Positions 11,803-38,077 of a stretch of 64,000 bases of DNA are shown here, one piece after another (the first letter of the stretch is position 1; every line of letters starts with the position of its first letter). Position numbers and translations under genes: made by a program. Under the pieces are notes generated by a model. That model ran no database searches. It was not told where the DNA came from and worked only from the letters and a program-made list of their open reading frames with translations. Source of the DNA: an uncultured Acidobacteriota bacterium (GTDB taxonomy: Bacteria > Acidobacteriota > UBA6911); assembly GCA_963747985.1 (NCBI GenBank), contig CAVVHG010000012.1:36054-100053 (forward strand), in the 5' to 3' direction.

Positions 11803-11813
11803 TTCCATTCTTG

Positions 11814-20703: not shown

Positions 20704-21504
20704 ATGTCTGCTTCTATGAAGACTGTCGTCTATAGCGCCCTCTTCGGTCGATACGAGCCCTTCCAGGAAATCGCGCTTGCAGCGCGCGACACCGCCGATT
20801 TCCTCCTGTTTACCGACACGCCCGGCTTGCAATCTGTCACCTGGAAGGTTATCTACGTCGGTCGCCTTTTCGCCGATCCGGCGCGTGCGGCCCGTTGTGT
20901 CAAGATCCTGGCTCACGAGTATGTGGCAGGTTACGACGTCAGCGTCTACCACGACGCCCGCATCTGCCTCAAGGTGCCGCCATCCGAACTCCTTGCGGAT
21001 TTCCTGCCCGATCAGCACTCCCGGTTCGCCTGCGTCAGGCATCCGGACCGTGACTGCATCTACGAAGAAGCCGAGATTATCGCCAGCAGCCGGATGGACG
21101 ATCCCGAGAAGGTGTATCACCAAGTGGCGCGCTACCGGGATGAGGGCTACCCCGCGCACAACGGGCTTATCGCCGGCGGTTTCCTCGTCCGGTGGCACAA
21201 CGACCCTCAGGTTGTCGCTGCCATGAAGAACTGGTGGCTGGAAGTCGCGGAAGGCAGTTGCAGGGACCAATTGAGCTTCAACTACATCGCATGGAAGCTC
21301 AGGTTCGCCTTTAATGCACTTGATTGCGATCTACGCGACAACCGATTCTTCGACTGGCTCCCGCCAGCCCCTAATCGCATACCGTATGGTTTTAACGATG
21401 CAGAGTACCTGGCCTTGAACCCGGATGTGGCCGCCGCCCGCATGGACCCTCGATACCATTGGTCGCGCTACGGCTACAGGGAGGGCCGCCGCTTTCGCCT
21501 CTAG
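20704..21504 (+). CDS. DUF616 (TOD1/MUCI70-like) putative glycosyltransferase-family protein.
   Basis: VVYSALFGRYEPFQE...DFLLFTDTP...HPDRDCIYEEAEI...GYPAHNGLIAGGFLVRWHN resembles the DUF616 motif pattern. Confidence 0.5.
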   Translation: MSASMKTVVYSALFGRYEPFQEIALAARDTADFLLFTDTPGLQSVTWKVIYVGRLFADPARAARCVKILAHEYVAGYDVSVYHDARICLKVPPSELLADFLPDQHSRFACVRHPDRDCIYEEAEIIASSRMDDPEKVYHQVARYRDEGYPAHNGLIAGGFLVRWHNDPQVVAAMKNWWLEVAEGSCRDQLSFNYIAWKLRFAFNALDCDLRDNRFFDWLPPAPNRIPYGFNDAEYLALNPDVAAARMDPRYHWSRYGYREGRRFRL

Positions 21505-21758
21505 CCGGGGAGTGGGACACCACAATCAACCTCGCGGAAAGCCACCTGCCGTCGCCGTCACGGTGCCTCCTTGCGGTATCTGCGCATGATCTGGCGTCTG
21601 GGTTCGTTGTCTGCAAATACCTGCCAGGCGGCGATGCACCTGCCAGCCACAACTGCCCGCCAAACAGCCGGGGTGCTCCAGCGATCGGAAGGGTCGAGGT
21701 TACCATCTGGCGAATCTAATTGCGATCCTCCCCTCTCATGGACCGGTATCGCAAAGAA

Positions 21759-24290
21759 CTATTCGTACCGCAGCGCGACCATCGGGTCGACCCTGGTGGC
21801 CCGGAGCGCGGGAACGATCCCCGCGAGCGCGCCAACAGCCAGAAGGATGAGCGTGCCGCCCGCAATCGCGATCGGATCCTGGGCTCCCACGCCATACAGC
21901 AGTGACTTGATGACCTTTGACGCGGCAATTGCTGCGGGAACTCCGATCGCCACTCCGATGCCGACGAGCAGCGCTGCGTCACAAAGGATCAACGTCAGCA
22001 CCTCCGGGCGCCGTGCGCCCAGGGCGACGCGAATGCCGATCTCCCGTGTCCTGCGAGTCACCGCATATGAGAGCACACCGTAAAGGCCGACGCCCGCCAG
22101 GAGAAGGGCGAGCATCCCGAAAAATCCGGAGAGGGTGGCAATGAGCCTGTCCTCGAGAACGTTTGCGTCGACCTGGTCCTGCAGTGTTCTGGAGTGTGTC
22201 ACCGGGACTGAGGGATCAAGTCCTGCGGCGAGATGCCGCACGGTTTCGATCAGTTCCGGAGCCGATCGTGTTGTGCGGACGCACACGCTTCGGGATGGCC
22301 AGAGGGCCCTCCAGGTCGGCACGTACAGCATCGGTTTGGGCGTCTCTCGCAGGCTGAAGTAGTAGGAGTCTTTCACAATCCCTACGATCTCGTATGCGCG
22401 CTCGGGATTGTATTTCTCGTCGAGCGCGATGTGCAGCCCGATCGGGTTCCGCCCCCCGAAAAACTGCTTTGCCGAGCTCTCGTTGATGATCATGACGCGT
22501 GGGCCAGGCGGCTCCTCCGGTGGCTTCCCTGGGATGTCTTGTTCCGGAGGTGCAGGGTAGTACACCGGGTTGTCCTCGTCGCGGAAGTCGCGGCCGAGCA
22601 CCAGCGGAATCCCCATCGTCTCGAAGAAACGGGGAGACACCGCATTCATGTCGATGTACTTCACGTCCGCCGGTTTCCACTGGTAGCCTTCGACCGTGAA
22701 GTCCTCATTCCACTGCATCCCACTCAGGGGAGTAATGGCCGCAAGGCTGACAGCACGCACTCCCGGTACCGTCTCCACCTCAGTTCGCAGGCGATCATAG
22801 AACTCCCGCAGCCGCTGCCCCTTGTACCCATTGGGAGTTGGGTCGATGGATATCAGGAGAGTGTGCTCGGGCCGGAACCCGGGATCGATGTCCTGTAACT
22901 TACCCAGACTGCGTACAAACAGGCCCGCGACGATAAGCAGCATTACCGAAAGCGCCACCTGCAGGACCACCAGCGCGTTTCGCAGCGTGACGCGTGAAGA
23001 TCCTCCGGACCCTGCAACCTCATCCTTGAGCGCCGGCACCAGATCCGGACGGGTGGAGCGCAGGGCGGGAACGATACCCGACAGCACGCCCGTGAGCAAC
23101 GAGACCGCGGCCGCAAAGCCAAGCAGACGCAGATCAGGTGAAATGCTCATCGACCCCAGGTCCGATTCCGCCGGTGGCACGAAGGTGAGCAGAACCCTGG
23201 TGCCGATGCGCGACAGCATCACACCTAAGACGCCACCGAGCAGCGCGATGATGATGCTCTCCACCAGGAGCTGACCCGTCAATCGGGCCCGTGTTGCGCC
23301 GACGGCCAGCCGGATGGCCACCTCGCGCCGCCGCGCGGTCCCGCGCACGAGCATGAGGTTTGCCACGTTTGCGCAGGCAACCAGCAGGACGAGGCCGACT
23401 ACCGACATCAGGATGAGGAGAGGTTTCTCCAGCCGGGTTCGTATGTAGGAATGCCCGGTCGCGGCGGGCTGCAGCACAATAGGCTGGGCGCGGTTCACGA
23501 ATCTCGGATCCTGCGTTGTGCGGAGTTCGGCCTGCTCCTGCTCGCGATAGATCGCGAACATCTCCGTTTCCGCCTGTTTCACCGTGGCGCCTGGTTTGAT
23601 CCGGCCAATGACTTGCAGCCACCACCAGTGTCTGGTATTCCAACGCGTGAACGGCTCGCCTGAGACCTCGCTGAACATCAGGATGGGAACGAAAAGATCG
23701 GGCGAGGCACTTGGATCGGTCCCATGGAATCCTCGCCGGGTGACGCCCACGATCGTAAAGGGGTAACCGTTGAGCCGGATCTTGCGTCCGACCACACGCG
23801 GATCTGAGCCAAAGCGGGACTGCCAGTAAGTGTGGCTCAGGACTACATAAGGCGAGGCACTCGGGGCGCGGTCGTCCGCTGCATTCAGGACGCGTCCGAG
23901 CGCAGGATCGACCCCGAGCACTGAGAAATAGTTGCCGGAAACGATTGCGGCGTTGACGATTTCAGCGGGAGTGGCGGAATCGGCGTCCGCCAGTTGCATG
24001 CCCAACCGCTGCATTCCACCCGTACAGGCGGCCAGCGTGATGCTCGTGTTGTGATCGCGAAACGCCACGTAGTCCGGGTAATTCCACGACGACCTGTCTT
24101 CGCCCGCAGTCACCCGGTAGAGCTCCTGGGGGGACTTTACCGGGAGCCGCTTCAGTAGCAGCGTGTCGATGATGGAGAAAATGGCGGTATTGGCACCGAT
24201 GCCAAGCGCAAGCGAAAGGACCGCGACAGCCGTAACTCCCGGGGTCTTCATGACCATTCGGAGCGAATAACGAAACTCCCCCCAGTTCAT
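21759..24290 (-). CDS. ADOP-family duplicated FtsX-like ABC transporter permease (MacB-like).
   Basis: RBS GGGAGGA precedes ATG 24290. MNWGEFRYSLRMVMKTPGVTAVAVLSLALGIGANTAIFSIIDTLLLKRLPV. Two FtsX permease repeats, ending ...GIVPALRATRVDPMVALRYE. About 840 aa, with no adjacent ATPase. Confidence 0.85.
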   Translation of the reverse strand: MNWGEFRYSLRMVMKTPGVTAVAVLSLALGIGANTAIFSIIDTLLLKRLPVKSPQELYRVTAGEDRSSWNYPDYVAFRDHNTSITLAACTGGMQRLGMQLADADSATPAEIVNAAIVSGNYFSVLGVDPALGRVLNAADDRAPSASPYVVLSHTYWQSRFGSDPRVVGRKIRLNGYPFTIVGVTRRGFHGTDPSASPDLFVPILMFSEVSGEPFTRWNTRHWWWLQVIGRIKPGATVKQAETEMFAIYREQEQAELRTTQDPRFVNRAQPIVLQPAATGHSYIRTRLEKPLLILMSVVGLVLLVACANVANLMLVRGTARRREVAIRLAVGATRARLTGQLLVESIIIALLGGVLGVMLSRIGTRVLLTFVPPAESDLGSMSISPDLRLLGFAAAVSLLTGVLSGIVPALRSTRPDLVPALKDEVAGSGGSSRVTLRNALVVLQVALSVMLLIVAGLFVRSLGKLQDIDPGFRPEHTLLISIDPTPNGYKGQRLREFYDRLRTEVETVPGVRAVSLAAITPLSGMQWNEDFTVEGYQWKPADVKYIDMNAVSPRFFETMGIPLVLGRDFRDEDNPVYYPAPPEQDIPGKPPEEPPGPRVMIINESSAKQFFGGRNPIGLHIALDEKYNPERAYEIVGIVKDSYYFSLRETPKPMLYVPTWRALWPSRSVCVRTTRSAPELIETVRHLAAGLDPSVPVTHSRTLQDQVDANVLEDRLIATLSGFFGMLALLLAGVGLYGVLSYAVTRRTREIGIRVALGARRPEVLTLILCDAALLVGIGVAIGVPAAIAASKVIKSLLYGVGAQDPIAIAGGTLILLAVGALAGIVPALRATRVDPMVALRYE

Positions 24291-24342
24291 GCGTCCTCCC
24301 CTGCAACGGCAAGTTGCGGCACCGAAAGCCTCGTTTCGACTG

Positions 24343-24394
24343 AACCAGATTACCATGCTATCGATGGCAGTTTTATAATGGCGACGGAGACAAC
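24343..24394 (+). promoter_or_regulatory. Sigma70-type promoter cassette, copy 1 (TTACCA, 18 nt spacer, TATAAT-GGCG), shared with 32731-32782.
   Basis: aaccagaTTACCAtgctatcgatggcagttTTATAATggcgacggagacaac. About 85% identical over ~50 nt to the copy at 32731. It lies in the divergent region upstream of the amidohydrolase gene at 24414. Confidence 0.5.
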
Positions 24395-24413
24395 AAGACG
24401 GAGACAATGAAAA

Positions 24414-25706
24414 ATGATGAGACTGGTTTATCTTGCATCGGGGTTCTTCATGGGCGTACTGATGACTCTCGCGATCCCGGCATTTGCTCAATACGATCTG
24501 CTGCTCAAGGGAGGGCATGTCATCGATCCGAAAAACGGGATCGACGGAATCATGGACGTTGCCGTCGCCGCGGGAAAGATCGCGGCAGTCGCTCCGGAAA
24601 TCGATCCGCGCAAGGCGATGAAGGCGATCGACGTGCGCGGACTGTACGTGACCCCCGGCGCTATCGATATCCACACTCACCTATTTGCCACGACCGGGAT
24701 CCCGAATGCCTGGGCCGGGGATAAGAGCGTGCTCCCGGACGGCTTCAGCTTCCGCTCAGGCGTAACCACGATGGTGGACGCGGGCTCCGCGGGATGGCGC
24801 AATTTTGAGCAGTTCCGGCAGACGGTCATAGACCGTGTGAAAACCCGCGTCTTCGCCTTCGTCAACATCGTCGGCCTCGGCATGGTCAGCAACTTTGTCG
24901 AGCAGGATGTGAAGGAGATGGATCCCGGGCAGGTTGCTCGTATCGCCGCGAAGCACAAGGACGTCGTGGTAGGCGTCAAGACGGCGCACTACGAAGGGCG
25001 TGACTGGGCCTCCGTGGACCGTGCCGTCGAGGCCGGCAAGCTCGCCAATCTCCCCGTCATGGTGGATTTCGGCTTCTTCATGGCTGAGCGTCCCTATTGG
25101 CAGCTCGTTTCACAACGGTTGCGGCCGGGAGATATCAGCACGCACATGTACCGCAGCGGCGTCCCGTGGGTCGACGAGAACGGGAAGCTGCTCGATTACC
25201 TTCGACAGGCGCGCGCCCGGGGCGTGAAATTCGACCTCGGCCATGGTGGTGGCAGCCTCGTCTTCCGCAATGCCATCCCCGCGATCCGGCAGAAGTTCTA
25301 CCCGGATTCGATCTCGACCGATCTCCATACGGACAGCATGAACGGAGCCATGATGGATTTCCCCACCGTGATGTCGAAGATGCTTGTCATGGGAATGTCC
25401 ATGGCGGAAATCGTTCTCCGTTCGACGTGGATGCCCGCCGAAGTGATTCACCACCCTGAGCTCGGACATCTGTCCGTTGGCTCCCCGGCCGACTTGGCGG
25501 TCTGGAGAATCGCCGAGGGTGAATTCGGATATGCAGATACCAGCGGCGGAAAGCTCGCGGGCACGCAGCGCATCAATTGCGAGATGACCCTGAAGGACGG
25601 AGCGATTGTTTGGGACTGGAACGCCCGTGGCGCTGTGGATTACAGAACCCTCGGTCCGTCCTACGGCCTGCGTGAAGGCGCGGACTACGTGATCGTCCCC
25701 AAGTAG
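24414..25706 (+). CDS. Amidohydrolase family protein (dihydroorotase/deacetylase-like metal-dependent hydrolase), secreted.
   Basis: Signal peptide MMRLVYLASGFFMGVLMTLAIPAFA. ...LLKGGHVIDPKNGIDGIMDVAVAAGKIAAV...VTPGAIDIHTHL is the amidohydrolase N-terminal metal-binding motif. Confidence 0.75.
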   Translation: MMRLVYLASGFFMGVLMTLAIPAFAQYDLLLKGGHVIDPKNGIDGIMDVAVAAGKIAAVAPEIDPRKAMKAIDVRGLYVTPGAIDIHTHLFATTGIPNAWAGDKSVLPDGFSFRSGVTTMVDAGSAGWRNFEQFRQTVIDRVKTRVFAFVNIVGLGMVSNFVEQDVKEMDPGQVARIAAKHKDVVVGVKTAHYEGRDWASVDRAVEAGKLANLPVMVDFGFFMAERPYWQLVSQRLRPGDISTHMYRSGVPWVDENGKLLDYLRQARARGVKFDLGHGGGSLVFRNAIPAIRQKFYPDSISTDLHTDSMNGAMMDFPTVMSKMLVMGMSMAEIVLRSTWMPAEVIHHPELGHLSVGSPADLAVWRIAEGEFGYADTSGGKLAGTQRINCEMTLKDGAIVWDWNARGAVDYRTLGPSYGLREGADYVIVPK

Positions 25707-25972
25707 CGCTTCTATGGTAAGCGGACCAGGAAGCTCTCTGGCCTGCTGCCGCAAAGTGACCGCTGTTCAACCCCTTCAGCGTTGGACCCTGGGGCGGATT
25801 CCGGGAACACGATGACCATCAAGACTCGCCCCTGAATGGGTTGGACAGTTTCCTTGCCGCACACGCAGACCGTTCTGCTGCGCGAATCTCCGTGTGGCGA
25901 CTTTCTGAATTACAGGTAGGGTGCAAGGGTGTTGTTGCACGAGGGTGAATCCTGCGGCAGGCGGGAAGCCGG

Positions 25973-26755
25973 TCAACGGAGCAGGAGGAGGCGGGTCCAG
26001 TAAGAGACCGGCGCTGCCAGGATCAGGCTGTCAAACCGATCGAGCAGGCCGCCATGCCCCGGGAGGAGGCCGGAAAAATCCTTTGTGCCCAGGTGGCGCT
26101 TGATGAGCGAAAAGAGAAGGTCGCCGGCTGTGGCGGCCAGAGCGGTCAGCAGGCCGAGAAGAGCGAGCGCGGGAGCAGAGATGTCGGGCGTGAGGAAACC
26201 CAGCGTCGGCGCCAGTGCCGTGGCGCTCAGAATCCCGCCAAGAAACCCCTCCACTGTTTTGCACGGGCTCAATCGAACGCAAAGACGATGGCGTCCCAGC
26301 AACCTTCCCAGGAGCTGGGCGTAGCTGTCGGTTGCCGCTACCACGAGAAGCACCATTGAATAGGAACCGCGCCAGGTCTGAGCAGGACCGAGAAAAAGGT
26401 GCGTCAGGAGACCGGCAGCAACCACGAAGAACAAGACGGCAAGCGTCAGGGCGTGAGCCTTCCCGGCTACCTCTGTGCGGTCGTCGTTGGATCGACGACT
26501 GCGGCGGAGGAGCCTGTACAGCTCTGCCGTGCCTCCAGCCGCGATAACGGCATAAAACGATAGGGTGTAAGACCGTCCTGCAGCGCCCAGCGCCAGCAGC
26601 AGGCTGATCAGGGCAAGGTAGACGTTGTACTTGACCCAATCCAGCCGCCTTCCAGCGGCGTCTGAGCCTTTCAAACGATGCGTGATTGCGATCAGGATCG
26701 CTCCGATGGCGAAGAGCGCTCCTGAGGTAATGATCAGGAGGCTGTCAACGCACAT
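25973..26755 (-). CDS. cdsA: Phosphatidate cytidylyltransferase (CDP-diglyceride synthase).
   Basis: Multi-TM protein. ...SPCKTVEGFLGGILSA...LPGHGGLLDRFDSLI matches the CdsA signature (SPxKTxEG ... GHGGxxDRxDS). Confidence 0.8.
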   Translation of the reverse strand: MCVDSLLIITSGALFAIGAILIAITHRLKGSDAAGRRLDWVKYNVYLALISLLLALGAAGRSYTLSFYAVIAAGGTAELYRLLRRSRRSNDDRTEVAGKAHALTLAVLFFVVAAGLLTHLFLGPAQTWRGSYSMVLLVVAATDSYAQLLGRLLGRHRLCVRLSPCKTVEGFLGGILSATALAPTLGFLTPDISAPALALLGLLTALAATAGDLLFSLIKRHLGTKDFSGLLPGHGGLLDRFDSLILAAPVSYWTRLLLLR

Positions 26756-27684
26756 GACTCGATCTCCTCTGTCGGCGCCGTTTCCGGGGTGATCAAGCGC
26801 ACGGCCTTGGGCAGAATTTCGATCTCGAATTCCTGGTTACGGGTAAGGATCTCGCCGTCACCGAAGAAGGGAACGACCCGGTCGGTAAGAATGCGCGCAT
26901 GACGGAGGCGATCGCGCACCACTCCGGACAGGATGGCTCCCCGGCCGAGCGCGGCTTGGAGCACAATCCCTGCCTCACGGAGGTGGCTCCGCGGGTCGGG
27001 GATCGCGCAAAGATCGAGCAGCCCGTCATCATCGACGGCCTTGGGAGAAAGTGAGAAGAAGACGCCGAATCGCGGCTGGTTACTGAAGACGACCGCCATC
27101 ACGCGACCGCTATACAGCGGACGACAATTGTCGATCCGGATTTCAACAGATCGACTTCGGCCGAGTTCGTGAAGGGCGGCAAGGAGATATGTAGTCCGCC
27201 GCAGGAGCCTGGCGCGCACAATGGGTGCTTCTTTCAGCGACCTGCAGCAGTTGTGTCGGATCGCGACGCGGGAGGGGAGTCCCATGCCGCCGCAGGTCGC
27301 AAAGAGCTTCCCGTTGACTGCAACCAGGTCGATCGCTCTTGTGTGATCGGCAAGGATCACACGACAGCATTCTCTGATGTCGCTTTTGAGCCCGATCGAG
27401 CGTGCCAGGTCGTTTGCCGTCCCGTGAGGCAGGATGCCGATCGGAACATCGTATCGCGCGGCAACCGCGAGAAGGCGGTGAACCGTCCCGTCCCCTCCGA
27501 CCGCGACCAGTCTGAGCCCTTCGGAACGATGCGCACGGCAGAGCGATTCGATTACAGGACTGGACGGGTCGATGATCAGAGAAACCTCCCGCTCCGGGAG
27601 AAACCCGCTCAGGAGCCCCTGCACGGACCTGATCCGGCCATCGCCGGCCCGGCTGCTCATCACGACGATGTAGCGCACGATGGA
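26734..27684 (-). CDS. Diacylglycerol-kinase catalytic-domain lipid kinase (YegS/BmrU-like).
   Basis: ...RYIVVMSSRAGDG...LRLVAVGGDGTVHRLL...ILPHGTANDLARSIG carries the DAGK_cat motifs including GGDGT. Its 3' end overlaps the cdsA start by about 22 nt. The start is taken at the GTG that follows GGAG (27684). Confidence 0.65.
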   Translation of the reverse strand, partial: SIVRYIVVMSSRAGDGRIRSVQGLLSGFLPEREVSLIIDPSSPVIESLCRAHRSEGLRLVAVGGDGTVHRLLAVAARYDVPIGILPHGTANDLARSIGLKSDIRECCRVILADHTRAIDLVAVNGKLFATCGGMGLPSRVAIRHNCCRSLKEAPIVRARLLRRTTYLLAALHELGRSRSVEIRIDNCRPLYSGRVMAVVFSNQPRFGVFFSLSPKAVDDDGLLDLCAIPDPRSHLREAGIVLQAALGRGAILSGVVRDRLRHARILTDRVVPFFGDGEILTRNQEFEIEILPKAVRLITPETAPTEEIESCALTAS

Positions 27685-27749
27685 TGCTCCCGGAGGACGA
27701 TATAGAGTGGACTCTGAACAGCGAAAGAGACCGACATATGATGCACTCC

Positions 27750-28469
27750 TCAGTAGACCCGGCGGAATCCCGGCTCGAGCAGCCGCATAGCCAGAAGAGC
27801 CGGCGCCACACAAAGCTGAAAGAGCATCAGAGCCAGGGGGAACCAGTAGAACACGGCGGGGGCTTCCCGCAACCAGATCATTGCCGGCACCATGGCTGCA
27901 AAGCTGACGTAGTTGGTAAGCGACTCGAACCCGGGCTTCCAGTGGGTCGTGATCAGGCTCGTGATCGGATATGGGATCGGTGACCAGCAGAGCAGAACCA
28001 GCATGCTCGTGTAAGCGGTAGCCCAGGCGGGAGGAAGCCCGAGCAGCCAGAAAAGCAGGACCGAGAAGAAGACCGGAGGAGCGCCGCGGCTGAATCCCTT
28101 TTCGAGGATCTGCGCCTTCATCGAGTACTTGAGGCTGCATGTAACCGCGGCCGCCAACGCCAATGGCCGGCCCCAGCCAGGGAGGAACACCCCCGCATGC
28201 CAACAGAAGAGCATGGGCACGAAGGTCAGCCCGATGACATCGGTGATCAAGTCGAGCGTCTCGCCGGAGATCTCAGGCAGGTGTTGTCGAATGCGAAAGA
28301 AGCGGGCCAGGGTGCCGTCTGTGTGATCCACGAAGAGCACCAGAAGCAGCCAGCGGATTGCAGCGTTGAAGTTGCCCCCCAGAATGTCCTGAGCGGCCAG
28401 CATGGCGAAGCCAAGGCCGGCCAAAGTCCAAAGATGGATCAAGAACCGCCACCGCAAGAAGATGTTCAT
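27750..28469 (-). CDS. CDP-alcohol phosphatidyltransferase family protein.
   Basis: LFVDHTDGTLARFFRIRQHLPEISGETLDLITD matches D-x2-DG-x2-AR...G-x3-D-x3-D. Multi-TM. The ATG overlaps the upstream gene stop (ATGA). An RBS GGAGGGGAG is upstream. Confidence 0.75.
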   Translation of the reverse strand: MNIFLRWRFLIHLWTLAGLGFAMLAAQDILGGNFNAAIRWLLLVLFVDHTDGTLARFFRIRQHLPEISGETLDLITDVIGLTFVPMLFCWHAGVFLPGWGRPLALAAAVTCSLKYSMKAQILEKGFSRGAPPVFFSVLLFWLLGLPPAWATAYTSMLVLLCWSPIPYPITSLITTHWKPGFESLTNYVSFAAMVPAMIWLREAPAVFYWFPLALMLFQLCVAPALLAMRLLEPGFRRVY

Positions 28470-29711
28470 GGTTGTGCGCTCCCCTCCGGGCCCGCGTGCT
28501 TGAGGACGGTGGCCACCTCGAAGTGGGAGTAAACCCACGACCGATCCTCAGCGAGCAGGCGTCCGGCAATTACAGTTTCTGGTCGAAACAGGTGAGTGAG
28601 CGTAGGCGGCGTCTGTCTTCGGACAAGCAGATTGCGATAGCAGACGCGCGCGTTGGGGCGCGCTACGCGATGCGTTTCACGCAGAGCCTGCTCGAAAGCA
28701 TCCCCGGGCAACCATTCGAAGACGTTAGAGTAGGCAAAGGCATCGACTCGACGAGTCCGGCATCTTCGCAAGGAATGCGCCGAGTTCCATGGTTTCAACC
28801 TCAACGTGATCGACTGCCGATTGGAGCGCCGGGTAGTTTTCGGCCAGCAGGTAAGGGGGCATGGTCCTTTCGTCGAGGTAGTGTCCCAGGCAGATCTGAG
28901 CGGCGAAGTAATTTTCCTGTGGCGGCAGCTCCACCAGTGCATGCCTCGTAAGGCGGAGAAAATGGGCTCCGAAGTCTTCGATTCCGTCCACGTATGTGAA
29001 GAATGCGCGATCGAGGCCGGCACCGCCCAGGACCGGGCGTGAGAAGAAAAGACGGAAGCACAGCCTCCAGAGGCGTGTGTTCCACTGGTCTTCGTAGAAC
29101 CTCCGCCGCTCCTCCAATGATCGCGGCGCGAAGAGCTGCTCGACCCTCCGGCGTCCTTCGATGAGGATGAGGAGCCTGCGGAATGCAGCCAGATACCGCT
29201 CGTATCGCCCCGCGCGCAGGACGCCGGCTTCGATCAGCGGCAGGTGCGTATCCCAGAAGACGACGGCAGAACGAGGAAGGGCGGTCCGGCACTGCGCGTA
29301 CAGCCGACCTCGACGGTTAGACGCGCGGACTCCGAGCAGTTCCAGATACTCGGGGTGAGAAAGGCACTTCGTCCCCGCGATCTTCAGCCGGAGCAGGTGA
29401 CCCTGGGCAGCATTCAGATCGACGGCGAGGATCCGCTCCGGCCGCAGAAGAGACAGGGACAGTGCAGTACAGCCGCCTGAGGTCACGACCACAGCCGTTT
29501 TGCCGGGCTGCAGGCAGAGCGACTCGGCATCCATGCGGGGGTCTTCCCAGCACTGCGAGAAGAGCAGCCGCTCAAAGACAGGGCGCGCCAGGATGGGAGC
29601 AGAGGTTTGTTCCTCCCGAGCGGCCTGGAAACCGCCGGCGGCCCATGTCGAGGCGTGCGAGCGTACCGCCATGGACGAAGAGTCCTGGGAGATATCTGGT
29701 TGGTTCAGCAT
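28466..29711 (-). pseudogene. BtaA-like S-adenosylmethionine:diacylglycerol 3-amino-3-carboxypropyl transferase (DUF3419), interrupted by a frameshift near 28745-28755.
   Basis: N-terminal part (frame 1, 29711->28725): ...LLFSQCWEDPRMDAESL...AVVVTSGGCTALSLSLL...ILAVDLNAAQ... C-terminal part (frame 2, ->28466): VDAFAYSNVFEWLPGDAFEQALRETHRVARPNARVCYRNLLVRR... The junction is at GACTCGTCGAGTCGATGCC, where ...KMPDSSS becomes RVDAF... RBS GGAGCAG. Confidence 0.6.
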
Positions 29712-30934
29712 ACGGCTGCTCCTTTCACTGAACATGAGGCGTGAGACGGGTAGGTTGCTGGTTCGACAGGGTTCTGCCGGCCCCAGCGCGTGCGTTCGCA
29801 GAAGGCAAACAGGCGGTCCAGATAGTCCGCGACCCGGGGGCATCTGAGGCCGGCTTCTCCAAGCGCGCTGCGAGCACCCGAGTCATCGAATTCCTTGTGG
29901 CCTTCCAGGTAGGCGAAGAAAGTGCGCAACCCGCGGTTTCTCTCCGTGCAGCGGGAGACGAATCGCAGCGGTTCACCGCCCGGGTGGAACCACCAGATTG
30001 CGCGCGCAAGGAGCTCCTGGGCCGAGATCGTGCCGGACCGGCCGGCGACCAACTGGTAGCAGCTGCCCATGCTTTCGCGGTGTTCCATGAGCTCGACGAC
30101 GGAATCTGCTACATAGTCCACCGGGACCAGGTCGAGCGGTGTTCGCGGTTCACCCGACACGCATCGCACCATCCCCTCGGCGACGAGGCGAAGCGGCCAA
30201 TAGATCGACGCGAAGTTGCAGGTATAACCGTCGCGGGAATCGCCTACGATGATGCTCGGCCGGAAGACAGCAATGGGCAGGTTTGCCCCGGCAGACCGGG
30301 CCAGGAGCTCAGACTCGAACTTCGACTGCTCGTAGGCATTGAGGAAGTTCTGGCCGCACTGCAGCTCTTTTTCCAGAATGCAGCCTTGTCGATCACCAGC
30401 AACGAAAGCCGTACTGATCCAGGCAAGCGATTGGAGCCGGGTGCAGGACTGTGCCAACCGCAGGACCTCCTGCGCGCCCCCAAGGTTGGTCCTGCGCGCC
30501 TCAGAGAGCGATGTGTTCAGATGGACGGAGGCAGCTGAGTGGATGATCCGGGTGATTCTGCCGGCCAACTCCGTCGCAGTTCGCGGATCCATTCCGAGCC
30601 GCGGAAGGCTGAGGTCGCCCCGAAGCGGGCGAAGGCGGGTTCTGTCAAGGCCAGGCCAACGCGAGGCAAGAGAGTTGATTAGGCCCAGGAAGCGGCACTG
30701 CACATCGACGTCGTCACGCCCCCTGATAAGCAGGTAGATAGGTTGCCCTTGGCTGCGGGCGAGGAGGCGCGGGACCATCTCGCGCCCCAGAAGGCCGGTG
30801 GCTCCAGTGAGAAGAATCGCCCCTCGTTCCCTCCGGCACCACCCTGGCTCAGGGATTCTTTGACGGGTTTGCCAAATCGTCCGCCGATCGTGGGGCTGAG
30901 TGGTCGGTACTGCTTTACCGTGAGGCGTTGCCAT
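29705..30934 (-). CDS. Thioester-reductase / fatty-acyl-reductase-like SDR (NAD_binding_4, male-sterility domain).
   Basis: GGAGG lies 6 nt before ATG 30934 (MATPHGK...). ILLTGATGLLGREMVPRLL...IYLLIRGRD...LRGDLSLPRLGMD...IIHSAASV...ISTAFVAGD...NAYEQSKFESE matches the thioester-reductase domain pattern. The stop overlaps the BtaA-like start. Confidence 0.65.
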   Translation of the reverse strand: MATPHGKAVPTTQPHDRRTIWQTRQRIPEPGWCRRERGAILLTGATGLLGREMVPRLLARSQGQPIYLLIRGRDDVDVQCRFLGLINSLASRWPGLDRTRLRPLRGDLSLPRLGMDPRTATELAGRITRIIHSAASVHLNTSLSEARRTNLGGAQEVLRLAQSCTRLQSLAWISTAFVAGDRQGCILEKELQCGQNFLNAYEQSKFESELLARSAGANLPIAVFRPSIIVGDSRDGYTCNFASIYWPLRLVAEGMVRCVSGEPRTPLDLVPVDYVADSVVELMEHRESMGSCYQLVAGRSGTISAQELLARAIWWFHPGGEPLRFVSRCTERNRGLRTFFAYLEGHKEFDDSGARSALGEAGLRCPRVADYLDRLFAFCERTRWGRQNPVEPATYPSHASCSVKGAAVC

Positions 30935-31317
30935 TTCGGCCTCCAGCGTTGGCAACATTATCGGCGGCCTGCGCCGACCGATCCATGCACAGCATGCCAA
31001 CTCCTCCGCAATCGTTTGTCTCCGGCTAAGTTGCTATGAATACAGGGCTGCCAAACCGTCTTTCTCCTGGGTCTCTCGAGAATCAGGAGCACAGAGGGGT
31101 CCAGCAGGGAGAAGAGGAACAATGCAGGAGTCGCATGTATCCTTGACCGGCAGCTGGCGCAGGCCCTTCGCACATGCATTCCGGGCCCGGTGCGTGGAAG
31201 CGGACGCGCTTCGCCTTGGTGGGCGCGTGCCGCGGGCGCGCGCATTGCAGCGGTAGAAGAAGGGGTATCGTTCTGCGCCGTGTCCCTGCCGGCAGGGCGG
31301 ACCTATGTGTCCTGTTA

Positions 31318-32624
31318 TCAGGGCTTCTTGTAGATCACGCCATCTTTCATGACGAAGCGGACATCCCTTACGGCTTTGATGTCCCGGGTAGGATCGCCCG
31401 GAACAGCGATGATGTCTGCGAGGAATCCCGGCTGGATCCGGCCAAGGCGGTCCTGCATGCGAATGATCTTCGCGTTAATCGCTGTCGCTGCCGTCAACGC
31501 CTGCACCGGAGTCATTCCATAGCGGACCATCATTTCAAGCTCTCGACAGTTGGTTCCGTGGGCAAAGACGCCGACATCGCTGCCGAGCCCGATTGTGACC
31601 CCGGCCTTGAACGCGGCCTGGAATGCAGCCTGAGCCTGTTTCATCGCGGCGGTAGGGGCAGTGCCCGGCTTATAGCCGTCGAAATATTCCGCGTAAGCCT
31701 CATCTGCGGCCAGCGTCGGCAGGTACGCGACGTTGCGTTGAGCCATCAGGCGGAAGACTTCTTCGGTACCGCCGTATCCGTGTTCAATCGTCTCGACCCC
31801 GGCCAGTGTCGCGCGGCGCATGCCTTCTGCGGTCGTGGCGTGAGCCGCCACGGGCCTGCCCGCGGAATGCGCCTCTTCGACAAGGACACGCAGTTCATCC
31901 TCGCCGAAGGTCGGGACCGTGCTGCCGCCGGGGCCGCGGCGGTAATCCGCGTAGACTTTGATCCAGTCCGCACCGTGTCCGGCCTGCTCGCGCACGGCTT
32001 TCAGAATCTCGGCCGTTCCGCTCACCGCCTGCGCGCCGCACGGCAGCACGATGTCGGGGGCAAAACCACGCGGACCAGGGCCATAGCTGGCAGTCGCCAC
32101 GATCGCCAGCGTAGCAGTCAGAAGGCGGGGTCCCGGTATCAGCCCCTCGTCGATGGCCTGTTTGATCGAGAGGTCGCCGTAGCCGGCTCCCTCGGTTCCA
32201 AGGTCGCGCAGCAGGGTGAAGCCGGCCATCAGGGTGTCCCGCACGTGGTTCACGGCTCTGACCGTCCTGTATGCCGGAGCTTCCTTGAGCACCTGGTCGT
32301 TCCACAGGGTCTCGTCGTACGGACGAAGGAATATGTGGGAATGGATGTCGCTGAGGCCGGGAAGGAGCGTCAGGCCGGGAAGCTCGATTTTCCGTGCGTT
32401 CCCGGGAATGGTGACCAGTCCGGATGGGCCGGCCGCCGAGATAGTCTTGCCGGTTACGACTACCGCCCAGCCTTCCCGAAGCCTGCCTTCGATCCCGTCG
32501 AAGACGCGCGCTGGTAGAAGGACATACACGTCTGGCGGCTCCCTGTTCGACTGGTTCTGAAACGTATGGCCAGCACCGACGCCCAAAAGGACTGCCAGCA
32601 AAATCAGAACGAGTACCCTGCGCA
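31318..32624 (-). CDS. Amidohydrolase family protein, secreted.
   Basis: RBS AGGAGG. Signal peptide [19 protein letters not shown]. ...[13 protein letters not shown]...AAHATTAEG...GLGSDVGV... Confidence 0.75.
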
Positions 32625-32730
32625 TCGCACCTCCTGCCTGACTGAGGACCCGTCGCATGGCGTATAGTGTGAATTCCTGTGAGAGTTGCCTGCCAAGTAT
32701 GCACCCGTTGGCAAGGAATTGTCCCAGCCA

Positions 32731-32782
32731 AACCAGATTACCACGCAATCGACGGCAGCCTTATAATGGCGCCGGAGGCAAC
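32731..32782 (+). promoter_or_regulatory. Sigma70-type promoter cassette, copy 2 (TTACCA, 18 nt spacer, TATAAT-GGCG).
   Basis: aaccagaTTACCAcgcaatcgacggcagccTTATAATggcgccggaggcaac, upstream of the S9 peptidase gene. A near-duplicate of 24343-24394. Confidence 0.5.
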
Positions 32783-32846
32783 GGGATCAGGAAGATTACT
32801 CCGGACGGACATTTCACAGACTGAGGGACGGGCAGTGGAGGCAGGC

Positions 32847-34901
32847 ATGCGCATACTGGCAATAGTGGTGACGTTGTCGATCATGGGTCTGACGGCGACC
32901 GCAGTCGCCGCGGAGCCGCATCCGTTTTCGGTGGTGGACATGCTGGCGATGGAGCGCATCTCGGATCCACAGGTGTCTCCCGACGGGAAGCTGGTGGCCT
33001 TTTCCGTCAGCGTGACGGATCTCGAGGCGAACCGGCGGCGTTCCGACATCTACGTTGCCACGCTGGGCGGATCCTCCGTGCGCAGGATGACCAGCAACCC
33101 GGCGAGCGACACGCAGCCGCGTTGGAGTCCTGACGGCAAGAGCCTGTTCTTTGTTTCGAATCGGGATGAGTCGGCGCAGGTATGGCGCCTGTCTCTGGAG
33201 GGGGGAGAGGCAGAGCAAGTCACGAAGCTCCCACTGGGTGTCGATGCGCTGAAGGTATCGCCCGACGGGAAATTGCTGCTGTTTTCCATGCCGGTCTTCC
33301 CCGGGAAGTCTCCTGAGGAGACGCGTCAGGTGCTTGACGCAAAGGAAAAATCCAAGGCCACCGGCATTCTTTTCGACCGCCTCTTCATTCGTCACTGGGA
33401 CACGTGGGAGGACGGCACGCGCAATCATCTGTTCGTCTACCCTCTCCCTTCCGGGCCGGCGCGCGACCTGATGCCTGCGATGAGCGCAGACTGCCCCGGT
33501 AAACCGTTCGGCGGCCCCGAAGAGTTCACGGTATCGCCTGATGGGAAAACGATCGTATTCACCGCGAAGGATGTGGGGCGGGAGGAGGCATGGTCGACGA
33601 ATTACGATCTCTTCCGCGTGCCTGCTGACGCTTCGTTTCCGCCGGAGAAGATCACCTCCAATGCCGCCTGGGATACTCAGCCCCTGTTCTCGCCGGACGG
33701 CGGGACATTAGCCTATCTCGCGATGAGCCGTCCGGGATACGAGGCGGACCGCTTCGACATTGTTTTTCGAGACTGGTTGAGCGCGCGGGAACGGAAGGTC
33801 ACCTTGCGCGTCGACGGTATGCCGCTCGGTGACCGTTCTGCGGGGGAACTGCTCTGGCCGGCGGACGGGAAAGAAATCTTTTGCACCTCTGATAACCTCG
33901 GACAGCATGCGATCTTCGCGGTCGATGTGGCATCCGGTGCGGCGCGAATGCTCGTGGGGCAGGGGACAGTGGCCGGCCTGCAGTACGTTGCCGGCGGGCG
34001 GCTTTTGTACGGAATGCACTCGTTGCTGGGTCCGCTCGAGTTATACACCGTGGGAACGGATGGCAAGGATGTGCGCCGGGTTACGCACCTCAACGACACA
34101 AGGGTCGCCGCCGCGAAATTCGGCAAGCCCGAGCAGTTTGCTTTCAAGGGTGCAAAAGGCGATACCGTCTACGGCTACATCGTGTACCCGGTCGATTTCG
34201 ATCCGGCGAAAAAATACCCCGTAGCATTTCTCATCCACGGCGGTCCGCAGGGATCGTTCGGAAACGATTTCCACTACCGGTGGAATCCGCAGGCCTATGC
34301 CGGGGCCGGCTACGCTGTGGTGATGGTCGACTTTCACGGGTCGACCGGTTACGGCCAGGTGTTTACCGATGCGATCAACAATGATTGGGGCGGGGCGCCG
34401 TACGAGGACCTGATGAAGGGCCTCGACTTCGCCCTCGAGAAGTACCCGTTCCTCAACAGGGATCGTATAGGCGCCCTCGGGGCGTCATACGGGGGCTACA
34501 TGATCAGTTGGATAGCAGGCCACACGGATCGATTCAGGACGCTCGTCTGTCACGACGGGAACCTGGATGAGCTCATGGCCTACTACGATACCGAGGAACT
34601 CTGGTTCCCCGAGTGGGAGCATGGCGGTCCTGCATATGACAATCCGGCCGGGTACACCAGGGATAGTCCACTGAGTTTCGCCGGGAACTGGAAGACCCCC
34701 ATGCTGGTGATTCACGGCGGCAAGGACTATCGGGTAGTTGATACTCAAGGTATTTCCACGTTCACGCTTCTTCAGCGCCGGGGCATCCCGTCGAAGTTCC
34801 TGTATTTCCCCGACGAGAATCACTGGGTGCTGAAGCCATCCAACACCATTCAGTGGCACGAAACGGTGCTCGGGTGGCTGGATCAATGGCTCAAGAAATA
34901 A
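32847..34901 (+). CDS. S9 family serine peptidase (prolyl oligopeptidase / dipeptidyl peptidase-like) with an N-terminal beta-propeller, secreted.
   Basis: RBS GGAGG. Signal peptide MRILAIVVTLSIMGLTATAVAA. Tol-type propeller repeats (SPDGK...). The C-terminal part is ...HGGPQGSFGNDF...IGALGASYGGYM...HGGKDYRV. Confidence 0.8.
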   Translation: MRILAIVVTLSIMGLTATAVAAEPHPFSVVDMLAMERISDPQVSPDGKLVAFSVSVTDLEANRRRSDIYVATLGGSSVRRMTSNPASDTQPRWSPDGKSLFFVSNRDESAQVWRLSLEGGEAEQVTKLPLGVDALKVSPDGKLLLFSMPVFPGKSPEETRQVLDAKEKSKATGILFDRLFIRHWDTWEDGTRNHLFVYPLPSGPARDLMPAMSADCPGKPFGGPEEFTVSPDGKTIVFTAKDVGREEAWSTNYDLFRVPADASFPPEKITSNAAWDTQPLFSPDGGTLAYLAMSRPGYEADRFDIVFRDWLSARERKVTLRVDGMPLGDRSAGELLWPADGKEIFCTSDNLGQHAIFAVDVASGAARMLVGQGTVAGLQYVAGGRLLYGMHSLLGPLELYTVGTDGKDVRRVTHLNDTRVAAAKFGKPEQFAFKGAKGDTVYGYIVYPVDFDPAKKYPVAFLIHGGPQGSFGNDFHYRWNPQAYAGAGYAVVMVDFHGSTGYGQVFTDAINNDWGGAPYEDLMKGLDFALEKYPFLNRDRIGALGASYGGYMISWIAGHTDRFRTLVCHDGNLDELMAYYDTEELWFPEWEHGGPAYDNPAGYTRDSPLSFAGNWKTPMLVIHGGKDYRVVDTQGISTFTLLQRRGIPSKFLYFPDENHWVLKPSNTIQWHETVLGWLDQWLKK

Positions 34902-34922
34902 GGAGAGAGGAGAGGATCATCC

Positions 34923-35651
34923 ATGAAGACCAAGTTGCTGCTCCCCGTCGCTTTGCTGGGAATTGTGCTGGCCGTTGCCGGCTTAACGAACGGTCAGCCG
35001 TCCGGCGATCCGTTGCTGGAAGGATTCCGACAGGCTGAGGTTGCGAGTGTCGCGGATGCGATCGAACAGTTGTATGGCACTCAAAATTACATGCACCATG
35101 ACATGCGCGCACTGTTCAAAACGAAATTTGCCGGGCCGGCCGTCACTGTAATGATGAAAAGGGAGGAACACAAGGAGGGGTCTGCCGCATCGCAGGGGAT
35201 GATCGACGCGATCGACGGCGCGCCTGCGGGTTCCGTGTACGTGATGGTGCTGCAGGACGGCCTGGATTATGGAGGCATCGGCGGCTTGATGGTCACTACC
35301 ATGAAGGTGCGCGGGCTGGCCGGCGCTATCGTGGATGGCTCAATCCGTGATCTTCCCCAGATTCAACGGCTGCAGTTTCCCGTGTACAGCCGCGGCGTCT
35401 CGCCGGGCACCACGATCGGTCACTTTCGCTGCGTAGGCGTCAACGTCCCGGTTACCTGTGCGGGCGTGACCGTAAATCCCCAGGACATCATCGCGGCGGA
35501 TGAGGACGGTGTAGTGGTGGTGCCGCGTGACAAGGCGGAAGAAGTATTGAAGAAGGCGAGGGAACTGGATCTGCAGGAGCACTCCATGTACCCGTTCATC
35601 GAGCGGTTCAGGTCGCTGAAAGAGGCCGTTGCCAAGTTCGGCCGGCTCTGA
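34923..35651 (+). CDS. RraA-family (RraA / 4-hydroxy-4-methyl-2-oxoglutarate aldolase-like) protein with an N-terminal signal peptide.
   Basis: MKTKLLLPVALLGIVLAVAGLTNG, then ...GSVYVMVLQDGLDYGGIGGLMVTTMKVRGLAGAIVDGSIRD...VVVVPRDKAEEVL matches the RraA/MenG fold pattern. Confidence 0.65.
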   Translation: MKTKLLLPVALLGIVLAVAGLTNGQPSGDPLLEGFRQAEVASVADAIEQLYGTQNYMHHDMRALFKTKFAGPAVTVMMKREEHKEGSAASQGMIDAIDGAPAGSVYVMVLQDGLDYGGIGGLMVTTMKVRGLAGAIVDGSIRDLPQIQRLQFPVYSRGVSPGTTIGHFRCVGVNVPVTCAGVTVNPQDIIAADEDGVVVVPRDKAEEVLKKARELDLQEHSMYPFIERFRSLKEAVAKFGRL

Positions 35652-35854
35652 TGAATGGGGTCGGACCGAGGCAACTCGTTTGCACACTTTGGATTGGCCT
35701 GTTCTCGGACTTCGAAAGCGGCCTCATGAGCGATTTTGGGTGCCTTTTTCCCTCCATAAGGAGAACGGCACCCTGAGGCCAGTCCCGCTGGCGCAAAAAA
35801 GAGGGCATCAAAATCCCGTTCTAAACGCCCTTTTGGAGATGGGAATGTCCCTAT

Positions 35855-38077
35855 ATGACTGGATCTAATGGCTTTGTTTCGGTCCGACCCCGATTGATTG
35901 TGCTGGTTCTGTTTGCATCTGCTTTTGCGATCGGTCAGGAGGAAGAAGACCTGAGTGTCTTCTGGAAGTGGGCAAGGTGGAGTAATCCCGGAGGCCTTCT
36001 GATCACTCATTTCATTGAGCAGGCAGACAAATATTACGACCTCCGGGATAGGGAGATAGCAAATCTGAAGACGAAGGGCGAGTGGCTGAAACGACAGGAC
36101 CGCGTCAAAGCCGCTCTCCTGAGAATAGTCGGCCCGTTACCGGAAAAGACTCCTCTGAATCCGCGGATCACAGGTGTTGTCAAGAAGGATGGGTACAGGA
36201 TCGAGAAGCTGATCTATGAATCCATGCCCGGGTTTTTTGTGACTGGATGCCTGTTCATACCGGAAACGGTGAGAGGGCCGTCCCCGGCTATACTCAATGT
36301 CATCGGGCACAACCAGGAAGCCTTCAGGGACGAGCTGTACCAGATCGTTTATCTAAACCTGGTGAAGAAAGGGTTCGTGATTTTGGCCATCGACCCCATC
36401 GGGCAGGGTGAGGATGTGCAGTATTACGATCCGAAGATTCAGTTCTCCTCGGTGGGATACACTGTCATTGAGCATTGCTATTTCGGGAACCAGTGCTTTC
36501 TCTCCGGGGTCTCGCCGGGAAGGTACTTTGCCTGGGACGGCATCAGGGGAATCGATTATCTGCAGACTCGGCCTGAGGTCGACCCGAACAGGATTGGAGT
36601 TACCGGATTCTCCGGCGGGGGAACGGTGACGTCCTATATCGGCGCCCTGGATGAAAGGGTCAAGGTGTCCGTGCCCTGCAGCTGGTCTACCGCATCAAGA
36701 AGGCAGACGGAAACCAAAGGCGCCCAGGATGCTGAGAGCATCTTCGTTCGCGGGCTGGCAGAAGGAATCACCTTTGAAGACCTGATCGAAGTCAGGGCGC
36801 CCAAACCGACCCTCATGACCTTCACAACGCGCGACGAGTACCTTTCCATACAGGGAGCCCGGGAGGCCTACCAGGAGATCAGGAAGGCATACAGGGCATT
36901 GGGCCGGGAAGAGAACGTCGCGTTCGTTGAAGACGACTATAAGCACTGGATGACGCCGCCGATTCGAACGGCTATATATGCATTCTTCATGAAGCATCTC
37001 GGGGTGGCTGGTGATCCCACTGAAAAAGAGGTCTCAATTCTGCCAAAAGACGAGCTGAAGGTAACGCCAACCGGGCAGATATCGACTTCCCTCCACGGCA
37101 AGAATGTATTCAGCATCAACAGGGCAGAAACCGAGACATTGCTGGAAAGCCTCGAGAGATCGAGAAGGAACGTCGCCGTACACCTGAACGAGGTCAGTAA
37201 TAAAGCGAAAAGGCTCTCCGGGTACGTTGCACCCGGGAGCGACTCGGCAACGGCCTTTTTCAACGGGAGATACCGCCGGGAAGGCTATTCCGTAGGCCGG
37301 TACGCGCTTCGAGGCGAGGGCGAATATGTGGTACCCCTACTCCTGTTTGTGCCCGAAGGCATAAACAGAGGCCTTCCGGCACTGGTCTACCTTCATCCTC
37401 AGGGCAAGAAGGAGGAGGCAAAACCGGGCGGAGAAATAGAGAGGCTGGTCAGGAGAGGGTACGTAGTCGCCGCGGCTGATCTTCTGGGTGTCGGTGAGAC
37501 GAAGAACACGGTCACGAGGGCCCTGGCGGACGACTATACGGGTGTGATGATCGGGCGGAGCACAGTCGGAATCCAGGCGGGGGACATCGTCCGGGTCGCC
37601 GGCTATCTGAGACAACTGGACTATGTGAATCCCGCACGGATCGGCGCTGTCGGACTCGATGAGATGTGCCTGCCCCTGATCCACGCTGCGGCATTTGAGC
37701 CTTCGATAAGGGGCGCGGTGCTCGTCGGCTCGCTGATTTCGTATCGTTCCGTGGCGATGAACGAATTCTACAGGATCGGGCTGATCCGGAACGAGGGGGG
37801 AGGCTATGTCCACCCTAACGAGGTGGATTTCTCCTGGGGAGTCGCCGGGGCGCTGACCGGTTATGATCTGCCCGACCTCATCGGGTGTATCGCGCCGCGC
37901 AGAGTCGTGCTGGCAGGTTTGAAGAATCAACTTCTCGTGCCCGCCTCAGACCAGGAAATTCAAACCGACACAGCGTTTCCGAATCTGGCTTATTCGCACC
38001 ATGGCGCCTCTGCGAACCTGAGGGTAGTGCCGGCTGGAGAGGATCTCGTTTCCCTGGTGGACTGGTGTCTGAAATGA
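35855..38077 (+). CDS. Secreted alpha/beta-hydrolase-fold protein (acetyl-xylan esterase / dienelactone hydrolase-like), apparently with two hydrolase-like regions.
   Basis: Signal-like N-terminus. IGVTGFSGGGTVTSYIG (a nucleophile-elbow-like motif). A second region LPALVYLHPQGKKEE...VVAAADLLGVGE follows. 740 aa. Confidence 0.55.
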   Translation: MTGSNGFVSVRPRLIVLVLFASAFAIGQEEEDLSVFWKWARWSNPGGLLITHFIEQADKYYDLRDREIANLKTKGEWLKRQDRVKAALLRIVGPLPEKTPLNPRITGVVKKDGYRIEKLIYESMPGFFVTGCLFIPETVRGPSPAILNVIGHNQEAFRDELYQIVYLNLVKKGFVILAIDPIGQGEDVQYYDPKIQFSSVGYTVIEHCYFGNQCFLSGVSPGRYFAWDGIRGIDYLQTRPEVDPNRIGVTGFSGGGTVTSYIGALDERVKVSVPCSWSTASRRQTETKGAQDAESIFVRGLAEGITFEDLIEVRAPKPTLMTFTTRDEYLSIQGAREAYQEIRKAYRALGREENVAFVEDDYKHWMTPPIRTAIYAFFMKHLGVAGDPTEKEVSILPKDELKVTPTGQISTSLHGKNVFSINRAETETLLESLERSRRNVAVHLNEVSNKAKRLSGYVAPGSDSATAFFNGRYRREGYSVGRYALRGEGEYVVPLLLFVPEGINRGLPALVYLHPQGKKEEAKPGGEIERLVRRGYVVAAADLLGVGETKNTVTRALADDYTGVMIGRSTVGIQAGDIVRVAGYLRQLDYVNPARIGAVGLDEMCLPLIHAAAFEPSIRGAVLVGSLISYRSVAMNEFYRIGLIRNEGGGYVHPNEVDFSWGVAGALTGYDLPDLIGCIAPRRVVLAGLKNQLLVPASDQEIQTDTAFPNLAYSHHGASANLRVVPAGEDLVSLVDWCLK

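Follow-up and report, generated by a model that had tools for sequence, protein, structure and literature searches.

Propagation and reuse of promoters in prokaryotes have been documented by Matus-Garcia, Nijveen & van Passel 2012 (PMC3488235) and by Nijveen et al. 2012 (PMC3575422), and the putative mobile promoters (PMPs) surveyed in the former study are the closest described systems to the element presented here. PMPs were defined as segments of at least 50 nt with at least 80% identity whose upstream and downstream coding sequences are non-homologous, and the commonest class in the survey consisted of doublets, which the authors attribute to recombinational duplication and not to transposition (PMC3488235). 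The survey stressed very recent, highly conserved events, and its doublets averaged ~92% identity (PMC3488235). The element presented here is likewise a pair: a cassette of about 52 nt occurs twice, as M1 and M2, in a 64,000-nt stretch (hereafter the window) of contig CAVVHG010000012.1 from an uncultured soil bacterium of the Acidobacteriota. Judged by the source names of its homologs and by an ADOP-type duplicated FtsX permease, the organism is an acidobacterium with affinity to Bryobacterales. We consider it reasonably probable that M1 and M2 descend as paralogs from a single compact cis-regulatory cassette, each being most likely a rightward promoter of the sigma-70 type, and that this cassette was copied once before the lineages carrying it diverged.

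M1 (24343–24394; AACCAGATTACCATGCTATCGATGGCAGTTTTATAATGGCGACGGAGACAAC) and M2 (32731–32782; AACCAGATTACCACGCAATCGACGGCAGCCTTATAATGGCGCCGGAGGCAAC) lie on the plus strand, 8.4 kb apart, and agree without gaps at 45 of 52 bases (87%). A preliminary description made from the bare letters had reported a repeat of ~50 nt and ~85% identity at both positions, and the alignment recovers it at exactly those coordinates. A degenerate consensus searched with up to three mismatches returned M1 and M2 only in the window and nothing in 100 shuffles, and a two-sequence nhmmer profile gave E ~1e-15 for each copy and no further window match below E = 1. When longer flanks were aligned, the similarity between M1 and M2 broke off abruptly at either edge, which indicates that the repeated unit measures ~52 nt and is no relic of a more extensive duplication. 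In length (52 nt) and ungapped identity (87%) the pair thus lies within the definition of a PMP, and the same applies to the genes beside it, which carry Amidohydro_1/3 versus Peptidase_S9 and PD40 domains downstream and MacB_PCD/FtsX versus Amidohydro_1 domains upstream.

Both copies occupy short gaps between divergent genes. M1 lies in the 123-nt gap between an ADOP-type duplicated FtsX/MacB permease (21759–24290, minus strand; Pfam MacB_PCD and FtsX, each twice), with 52 nt separating its start codon from the left edge of M1, and amidohydrolase-1 (24414–25706, plus strand; 430 aa; Pfam Amidohydro_1/3), homologs of which are named ‘amidohydrolase/deacetylase family metallohydrolase’ and ‘dihydroorotase’. 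The gap that holds M2, 221 nt long, separates amidohydrolase-2 (31318–32625, minus strand; 435 aa; Pfam Amidohydro_1) from a peptidase of the S9 prolyl-oligopeptidase family (32847–34901, plus strand; 684 aa; Pfam Peptidase_S9 and PD40). The proteins encoded downstream of M1 and M2 both have signal-peptide-like N-termini, as called by eye, and this context agrees with the preliminary description, in which the copies sit in divergent intergenic regions and are aimed at exported hydrolases. The two amidohydrolases are not close paralogs (BLASTP E = 0.17), and by Pfam the flanking genes are non-homologous between M1 and M2, upstream and downstream alike. The DNA between M1 and M2 encodes amidohydrolase-1 and, on the minus strand, a block of CDP-diglyceride-synthase-like, diacylglycerol-kinase-like, DUF3419 and NAD_binding_4 proteins, hereafter the lipid block.

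Predicted promoter elements

A consensus scan placed the arrangement TTACCA–18 nt–TATAAT at 24350–24379 in M1 and at 32738–32767 in M2, and these are the top two sigma-70-like matches (10/12) within 20000–38000. In M1 the −35-like TTACCA (24350–24355, plus strand) falls inside block 1 (24342–24359; GAACCAGATTACCATGC followed by T), the most conserved part of the cassette, which, counted from the predicted rightward start, would span approximately −44 to −27. The −10 hexamer TATAAT (24374–24379, plus strand) is followed by the 6-nt discriminator GGCGAC, and a predicted start near 24386 would have C at −1 and G at +1. The adjoining motif CGGAGAC (block 4; 24385–24391, plus strand) is the probable Shine-Dalgarno sequence of amidohydrolase-1. 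The corresponding elements of M2 are TTACCA at 32738–32743 and TATAAT at 32762–32767 (plus strand), with a predicted start near 32774.

Perfect TATAAT hexamers are rare in the 64-kb window, which has a GC content of 60%: seven occur on both strands taken together, and six of these seven are intergenic. Intergenic DNA makes up 13% of the window, which corresponds to an enrichment with P ~2e-4 to 1e-3, and from this rarity and bias we infer that TATAAT serves as a −10 element in this organism. Taken with the orientation of the copies and their distances from the genes, the bias supports, as a prediction, the earlier proposal that the cassette drives both downstream genes, and a rightward housekeeping-type promoter appears to be the most economical reading of the cassette.

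Such a promoter would consist of the TATAAT −10, a GC-rich discriminator (GGCGMC), a weak −35 (TTACCA or ATACCA) and an 18-bp spacer, with transcription starting ~7 nt after the −10. The M1 transcript would then begin right at CGGAGAC, and, since GGAG is found 9–11 nt before the ATG in the M1 orthologs, block 4 would act as the ribosome-binding site of amidohydrolase-1 at the end of a very short leader. A 14-nt tandem duplication of 24383–24393 has altered this leader in the window lineage only, the orthologs being single-copy in the alignment; the resulting second copy of GACGGAGACAA (24397–24407, plus strand) puts GGAG 10 nt before the ATG at 24414. In M2 the same promoter would head a leader of ~75 nt to the S9 peptidase, whose ATG is preceded at 6 nt by a GGAGG of its own, and in the related contig L004 it would head a Lactamase_B–S9 pair.

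Conservation and origin of the second copy

Homolog searches and contig look-ups led to syntenic soil-metagenome contigs, and a pattern scan of JGI metagenomes added four; these contigs, designated here by L numbers, comprise 250 kb together with the window. Eight distinct versions of the cassette were found in this material, every one at a position orthologous to M1 or M2. The M1 position, before amidohydrolase-1 orthologs and divergent from ADOP, is occupied in the window, L012, L013, L004 (=L014) and L005–7, and the M2 position, beside amidohydrolase-2 orthologs, in the window, L017–19 and L004 (=L015). Relative to the window, the flanking proteins are 81–89% (ADOP) and 86% (S9 peptidase) identical. 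The ADOP ortholog of L012 (175–4195) is split into open reading frames (ORFs) of 431, 257 and 594 aa where the relatives have a single ORF of ~843 aa, and this break could reflect either a pseudogene or a misassembly.

At the M1 locus, identity between lineages amounts to 71–88% for the cassette, compared with 39–72% for the 50 nt to its left and 76–90% for the first 21 coding bases of ADOP; the cassette thus evolves like coding sequence. The preliminary description had argued that the conservation goes beyond two hexamers, and a 52-nt repeat evolving under constraint is indeed what emerges. Invariant in all eight versions are AAC..GA.TACCA.GC in block 1, one G of the spacer, and TAATG.C; TATAAT itself is intact in seven of the eight (GTTAAT in the M2 copy of L004) and CGGAG in six.

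Over columns 1–42 of the alignment, the M2 copies form a group of their own, in which M2 of the window matches M2 of L017 at 40/42 positions and M1 of the window at 35/42; in addition, three diagnostic columns have C in all M2 copies and T in most M1 copies. This grouping indicates that the duplication is older than the lineage split and is not an effect of recent gene conversion, and for an old duplication the 87% identity between M1 and M2 in the window represents long-term constraint on both copies. Recent gene conversion between M1 and M2, considered as a candidate in its own right, finds no support in the diagnostic columns, with the qualification that the last 12 columns are too few to speak against a short conversion tract.

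Further copies were sought in related DNA and in sequence collections. Outside the two positions, the 250 kb contain neither a whole cassette nor its left block. Among JGI metagenome contigs, the pattern CATTAW-N14–18-GCRTGGTAWTCTKGTT, which combines block 1 and the −10, gave four matches, all at orthologous sites, and the same pattern gave none in viral contigs. GTDB representative genomes, which do not include the source genome, returned three chance matches to GATTACCA-N18-TATAATGGCG, in unrelated phyla and with no similarity in the spacer; a look-up of amidohydrolase-1 as an exact protein gave no record. The motif search proposed in the preliminary description, as run here on related DNA and these collections, hence revealed no copies beyond the two orthologous positions. 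More distant amidohydrolase-1 orthologs (70–80%; L008–L011) have other neighbours and no cassette. One of them (L010 9968–10003, =L011) has TACAAT 6 nt before its ATG in an intergenic gap of 33 nt, a position that suggests a leaderless mRNA.

Gene order differs between the lineages around M2. In L005–7 the lipid block, amidohydrolase-2 and M2 are all absent, and a Lactamase_B gene directly follows amidohydrolase-1 (L005 5220–6263). In L004 the next gene after M2 is a Lactamase_B ortholog (81% identical; 18387–19385), and the S9 peptidase comes behind it. The window and L017 contain no Lactamase_B, and M2 there adjoins the S9 leader, the distal part of which is homologous to the Lactamase_B–S9 spacer of L004. 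L016 retains amidohydrolase-2 and ~85 nt upstream of it, with the cassette replaced by unrelated DNA; this loss of the cassette beside a retained amidohydrolase-2 links M2 with the genes on its right. At the S9 gene of L005, a different promoter-like site with an extended −10, TGTATAATGCGC (L005 14831–14842), takes the place of the cassette.

From the position of M2 at the junction of the block, and from Lactamase_B standing right after amidohydrolase-1 in L005, we infer that the duplication probably gave a set of cut-off genes the same promoter. Genes once co-transcribed with amidohydrolase-1 would have been separated from it by the opposite-strand lipid block and amidohydrolase-2, and would have acquired, or kept, a copy of the promoter. 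The unit of ~52 nt would have been copied once before the lineages of the window, L017 and L004 diverged, and selection would have kept both copies. Judging by gene order and alignments, these events probably represent promoter reuse and not transposition. As separate observations, the region from amidohydrolase-1 to the S9 peptidase is a rearrangement hot spot, and TGTATAATGCGC in L005 provides an example of promoter turnover between S9 orthologs.

Block 1 and alternative readings

Block 1 (GAACCAGAWTACCAYGC) is longer and more conserved than a −35 element needs and probably binds something besides. Its 16-mer occurs nowhere else in the 250 kb with up to two mismatches. The block lacks dyad symmetry, its one repeat being the short direct ACCA-N4-ACCA, and its reverse complement (GCRTGGTAWTCTGGTTC) contains TGgTAATCT, which resembles an extended −10 and in M1 points at the ADOP gene. 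Block 1 may therefore be the site of a regulator common to both promoters, or may be used by RNA polymerase on the opposite strand through an extended −10. The second possibility amounts to a back-to-back bidirectional promoter, in which the minus strand of block 1 (GCRTGGTAWTCTGGTTC; TGnTAWTCT) would drive ADOP at M1 and amidohydrolase-2 at M2, with TATAAT serving the rightward gene. Two promoters would explain why the whole cassette is conserved, and the model is compatible with the sigma-70 reading. The reverse-strand TGGTA.TC is invariant in 8/8 versions, both copies lie in divergent gaps, of which the 123-nt M1 gap must hold both promoters, and the 52 nt between block 1 and the ADOP start would be a plausible leader length. 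However, M2 of L017 reads TAATCC and has lost the key final T, amidohydrolase-2 is kept in L016 without the cassette, and a candidate 5′ hairpin in the ADOP leader is weak (−7.2 kcal/mol, few covarying pairs), so that bidirectional transcription seems possible but rather doubtful. Equally tentative is a fuller version in which the 52-nt cassette, as a self-contained regulatory unit made of a bidirectional promoter and, in block 1, an operator for a trans-acting regulator, would have been copied as a whole and would have restored co-regulation of Lactamase_B/S9 with amidohydrolase-1 after the operon was split; if true, this would be a natural, datable case in which an uncultured acidobacterial lineage repaired an operon by duplicating promoter and operator together. 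Bryobacterales-like Acidobacteria possess many extracytoplasmic function (ECF) sigma factors, and ECF promoters follow the architecture AAC-N16-CGT. An ECF reading of the cassette would take GAAC (24342–24345) as the −35 and CGAT/CGAC 16 nt downstream as the −10, and would place TATAAT within the transcript or in a second, tandem promoter. AAC is indeed invariant in all eight versions, CG(A/T) occurs 16 nt downstream in six, and M2 of L004 has the canonical CGTC, yet the M1 copies of L004 (AAAC) and L005 (CAAT) lack the CG and still keep TATAAT. Moreover, the supposed spacer (AGAWTACCAYGC) is the best-conserved part of the cassette, which ECF promoters do not need, and the 58 window ORFs scanned with Pfam include neither a sigma-factor domain nor an anti-sigma gene, all of which makes an ECF promoter improbable.

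The readings that deny the cassette a fixed promoter function fare worse. It could be a relic without function, left by a past segmental duplication or recombination event, or else a site of recombination or attachment (att), the copies forming direct repeats around an inserted segment of 8.3 kb, and they do bracket amidohydrolase-1 and a lipid block that is absent from the L005 lineage. Against this, both copies were retained across lineages whose neutral flanks dropped to 40–60% identity, the bracketed amidohydrolase-1 is conserved in all lineages, so that not only the variable block is enclosed, and the repeats are 87% identical and not near 100%. Neither a compositional break or island nor terminal inverted repeats are seen around the copies, the window encodes no integrase or transposase, and the DNA between the repeats is free of recombinase genes; a genomic island or att site was rejected on the lack of a compositional shift and of a recombinase, and we regard the leftover or att reading as very unlikely. 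Slimmer still is the chance of a mobile promoter-bearing element, similar to a miniature inverted-repeat transposable element (MITE) or a repetitive extragenic palindrome (REP), or of a cis-regulatory or small RNA. The pair formally fits the sequence criteria for putative mobile promoters (PMC3488235), but 8/8 versions are at two orthologous positions, the GTDB matches are due to chance, the JGI matches are orthologous sites and viral matches are absent. Traits of MITEs or insertion sequences are lacking in the window, where the cassette has no inverted-repeat partner, no transposase is encoded and only the two fixed positions are occupied. Rfam, searched at gathering scores and at E ≤ 1, gave nothing but one meaningless snoRNA match (E = 0.92), and downstream of the predicted start M1 and M2 have in common only CGGAGRCAAC; with transcribed parts sharing at most ~10 nt, a common M1/M2 RNA structure is not possible. 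Two proposals of the preliminary description are thus not supported: for a mobile promoter module, all eight versions lie at the two orthologous positions, with no terminal inverted repeats, transposase, viral matches or further copies in the 250 kb, and for a secreted-hydrolase regulon, only two targets and no regulator gene nearby were found.

Three smaller features of the cassette were examined as candidates and rejected. A small ORF beginning with the ATG of TATAATG is in frame with the S9 gene in M2 and with amidohydrolase-1 in L012. In the window, L004 and L005 it ends after 8–10 codons, and the copies differ from each other by non-synonymous changes, a further reason for its rejection. 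The spacer inverted repeat CCAT-N7-ATGG occurs in the closest M1 copies only, and two T-to-C changes in M2 are not compensatory. A sigma-54 reading of TGGCAG... is without the essential GC at −12.

Several points weigh against the reading of M1 and M2 as conserved, duplicated sigma-70-type promoters with a common block 1 function. The −35 is poor, TTACCA matching the consensus at 4/6 positions and the ATACCA of L004 and L005 at 3/6, and the 18-bp spacer is non-optimal. M2 of L004 has GTTAAT as its −10, a one-base deletion and a degenerate right half. Since the lineages under comparison are rather closely related, shared ancestry accounts for some of the conservation; at locus 2, the degree of conservation is about equal in the cassette and in the flank towards amidohydrolase-2, and a footprint there stands out only from the rightward flank, for which alignment is essentially impossible. 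A third target, which would define an operator, was not found in the 250 kb, nor did the Pfam scan of the window ORFs find a regulator gene near the cassettes; among all 58 ORFs, the only classical transcription-factor domain is that of a Trans_reg_C-TPR protein (58455–60161).

Other sites in the window and comparison with known systems

According to the preliminary description, the −10 and the following GGCG recur at 54153 before a gene for an outer-membrane protein (OMP). The 10-mer TATAATGGCG is present there (54153–54162, plus strand), upstream of an OMP beta-barrel gene, and 0.03 exact occurrences would be expected per window, but the site does not belong to the cassette, as it has no block 1 and no similarity past the 10 bases (nhmmer E = 1.9–3.2). 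It is a promoter-like site conserved separately: the ortholog of the OMP is 78% identical, its locus carries cacTATAATGGCGACG, and cacTATAATGGCGACGCTTGCCAAT is conserved upstream in L021–24. A GC-rich tetramer (GCGC, GCCA, CGCC or GGCG) commonly follows TATAAT throughout the loci retrieved, and the GGCG at 54153 is hence best explained as a generic discriminator and not by common descent or a shared regulator. The upstream region of the OMP gene (window 54100–54200, L021 2190–2290) is conserved in blocks, with CTGAATGCCGnCGnCATTTC ~30–50 nt upstream and TTGCCAATnAGnnTTTCGATC downstream of TATAATGGCG; in the window it also contains an 8-bp inverted repeat, GACGCCAT/ATGGCGTC (54117–54124 / 54157–54164), that is partly kept in the ortholog.

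Two further features were noticed elsewhere in the window. A TATAAT at 38984–38989, before a Ser/Thr kinase-TPR gene (39066–42035), has TATAATnnCnCCAATCCTT in common with L020 2871–2890 and probably marks an orthologous conserved promoter and start region. A palindromic unit of ~22 nt, GGGGGACAGTCACCGSTGTCCCC, forms three intergenic inverted pairs with copies 94–129 nt apart (46148–46177 / 46274–46308; 49023–49052 / 49117–49151; 51992–52021 / 52121–52155) and occurs once singly (11803–11837); it is a candidate REP/REPIN-like repeat family or paired operator.

Compared with a canonical sigma-70 promoter, the cassette has the consensus TATAAT, a G+C-rich discriminator, a pyrimidine and a purine at the predicted −1 and +1, and a fitting distance and orientation. 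It differs in its weak −35 and 18-bp spacer, and in the 18-nt block over and upstream of the −35, which is far more conserved than a −35 requires. Divergent promoter regions that share one operator offer a second parallel: both copies lie in short divergent gaps, and the conserved block could act both ways; unlike in such regions, no regulator is encoded nearby, and the leftward genes are unrelated between the two loci. To our knowledge, almost nothing has been learned by experiment about promoters of Acidobacteria. The pair would offer a well-defined candidate for a conserved promoter, in which the −10 matches the consensus, the discriminator is rich in GC and the leader is very short, and its 18-nt conserved block could act as bait for the protein that binds it.

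The comparison with PMP doublets is the closest. Like them, M1 and M2 form a family of two with non-homologous genes on both sides. Unlike them, the M1/M2 duplication is old, both copies are fixed in position and neither shows signs of ongoing mobility; copies at non-orthologous positions, as actual mobility would produce, appeared neither in the related contigs, within the 250 kb, nor in the GTDB, JGI and viral scans. A further difference is that M2 borders an inserted block of genes by which a probable operon was split. The cassette would thus most likely be a fresh instance of promoter duplication and reuse, a phenomenon already known, and neither a new kind of element nor evidence of a large regulon. 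Within that phenomenon it would stand as a clean case, in which a short segment was copied before a non-homologous gene, selection acted on both copies, and the event is tied to the split of a probable operon.

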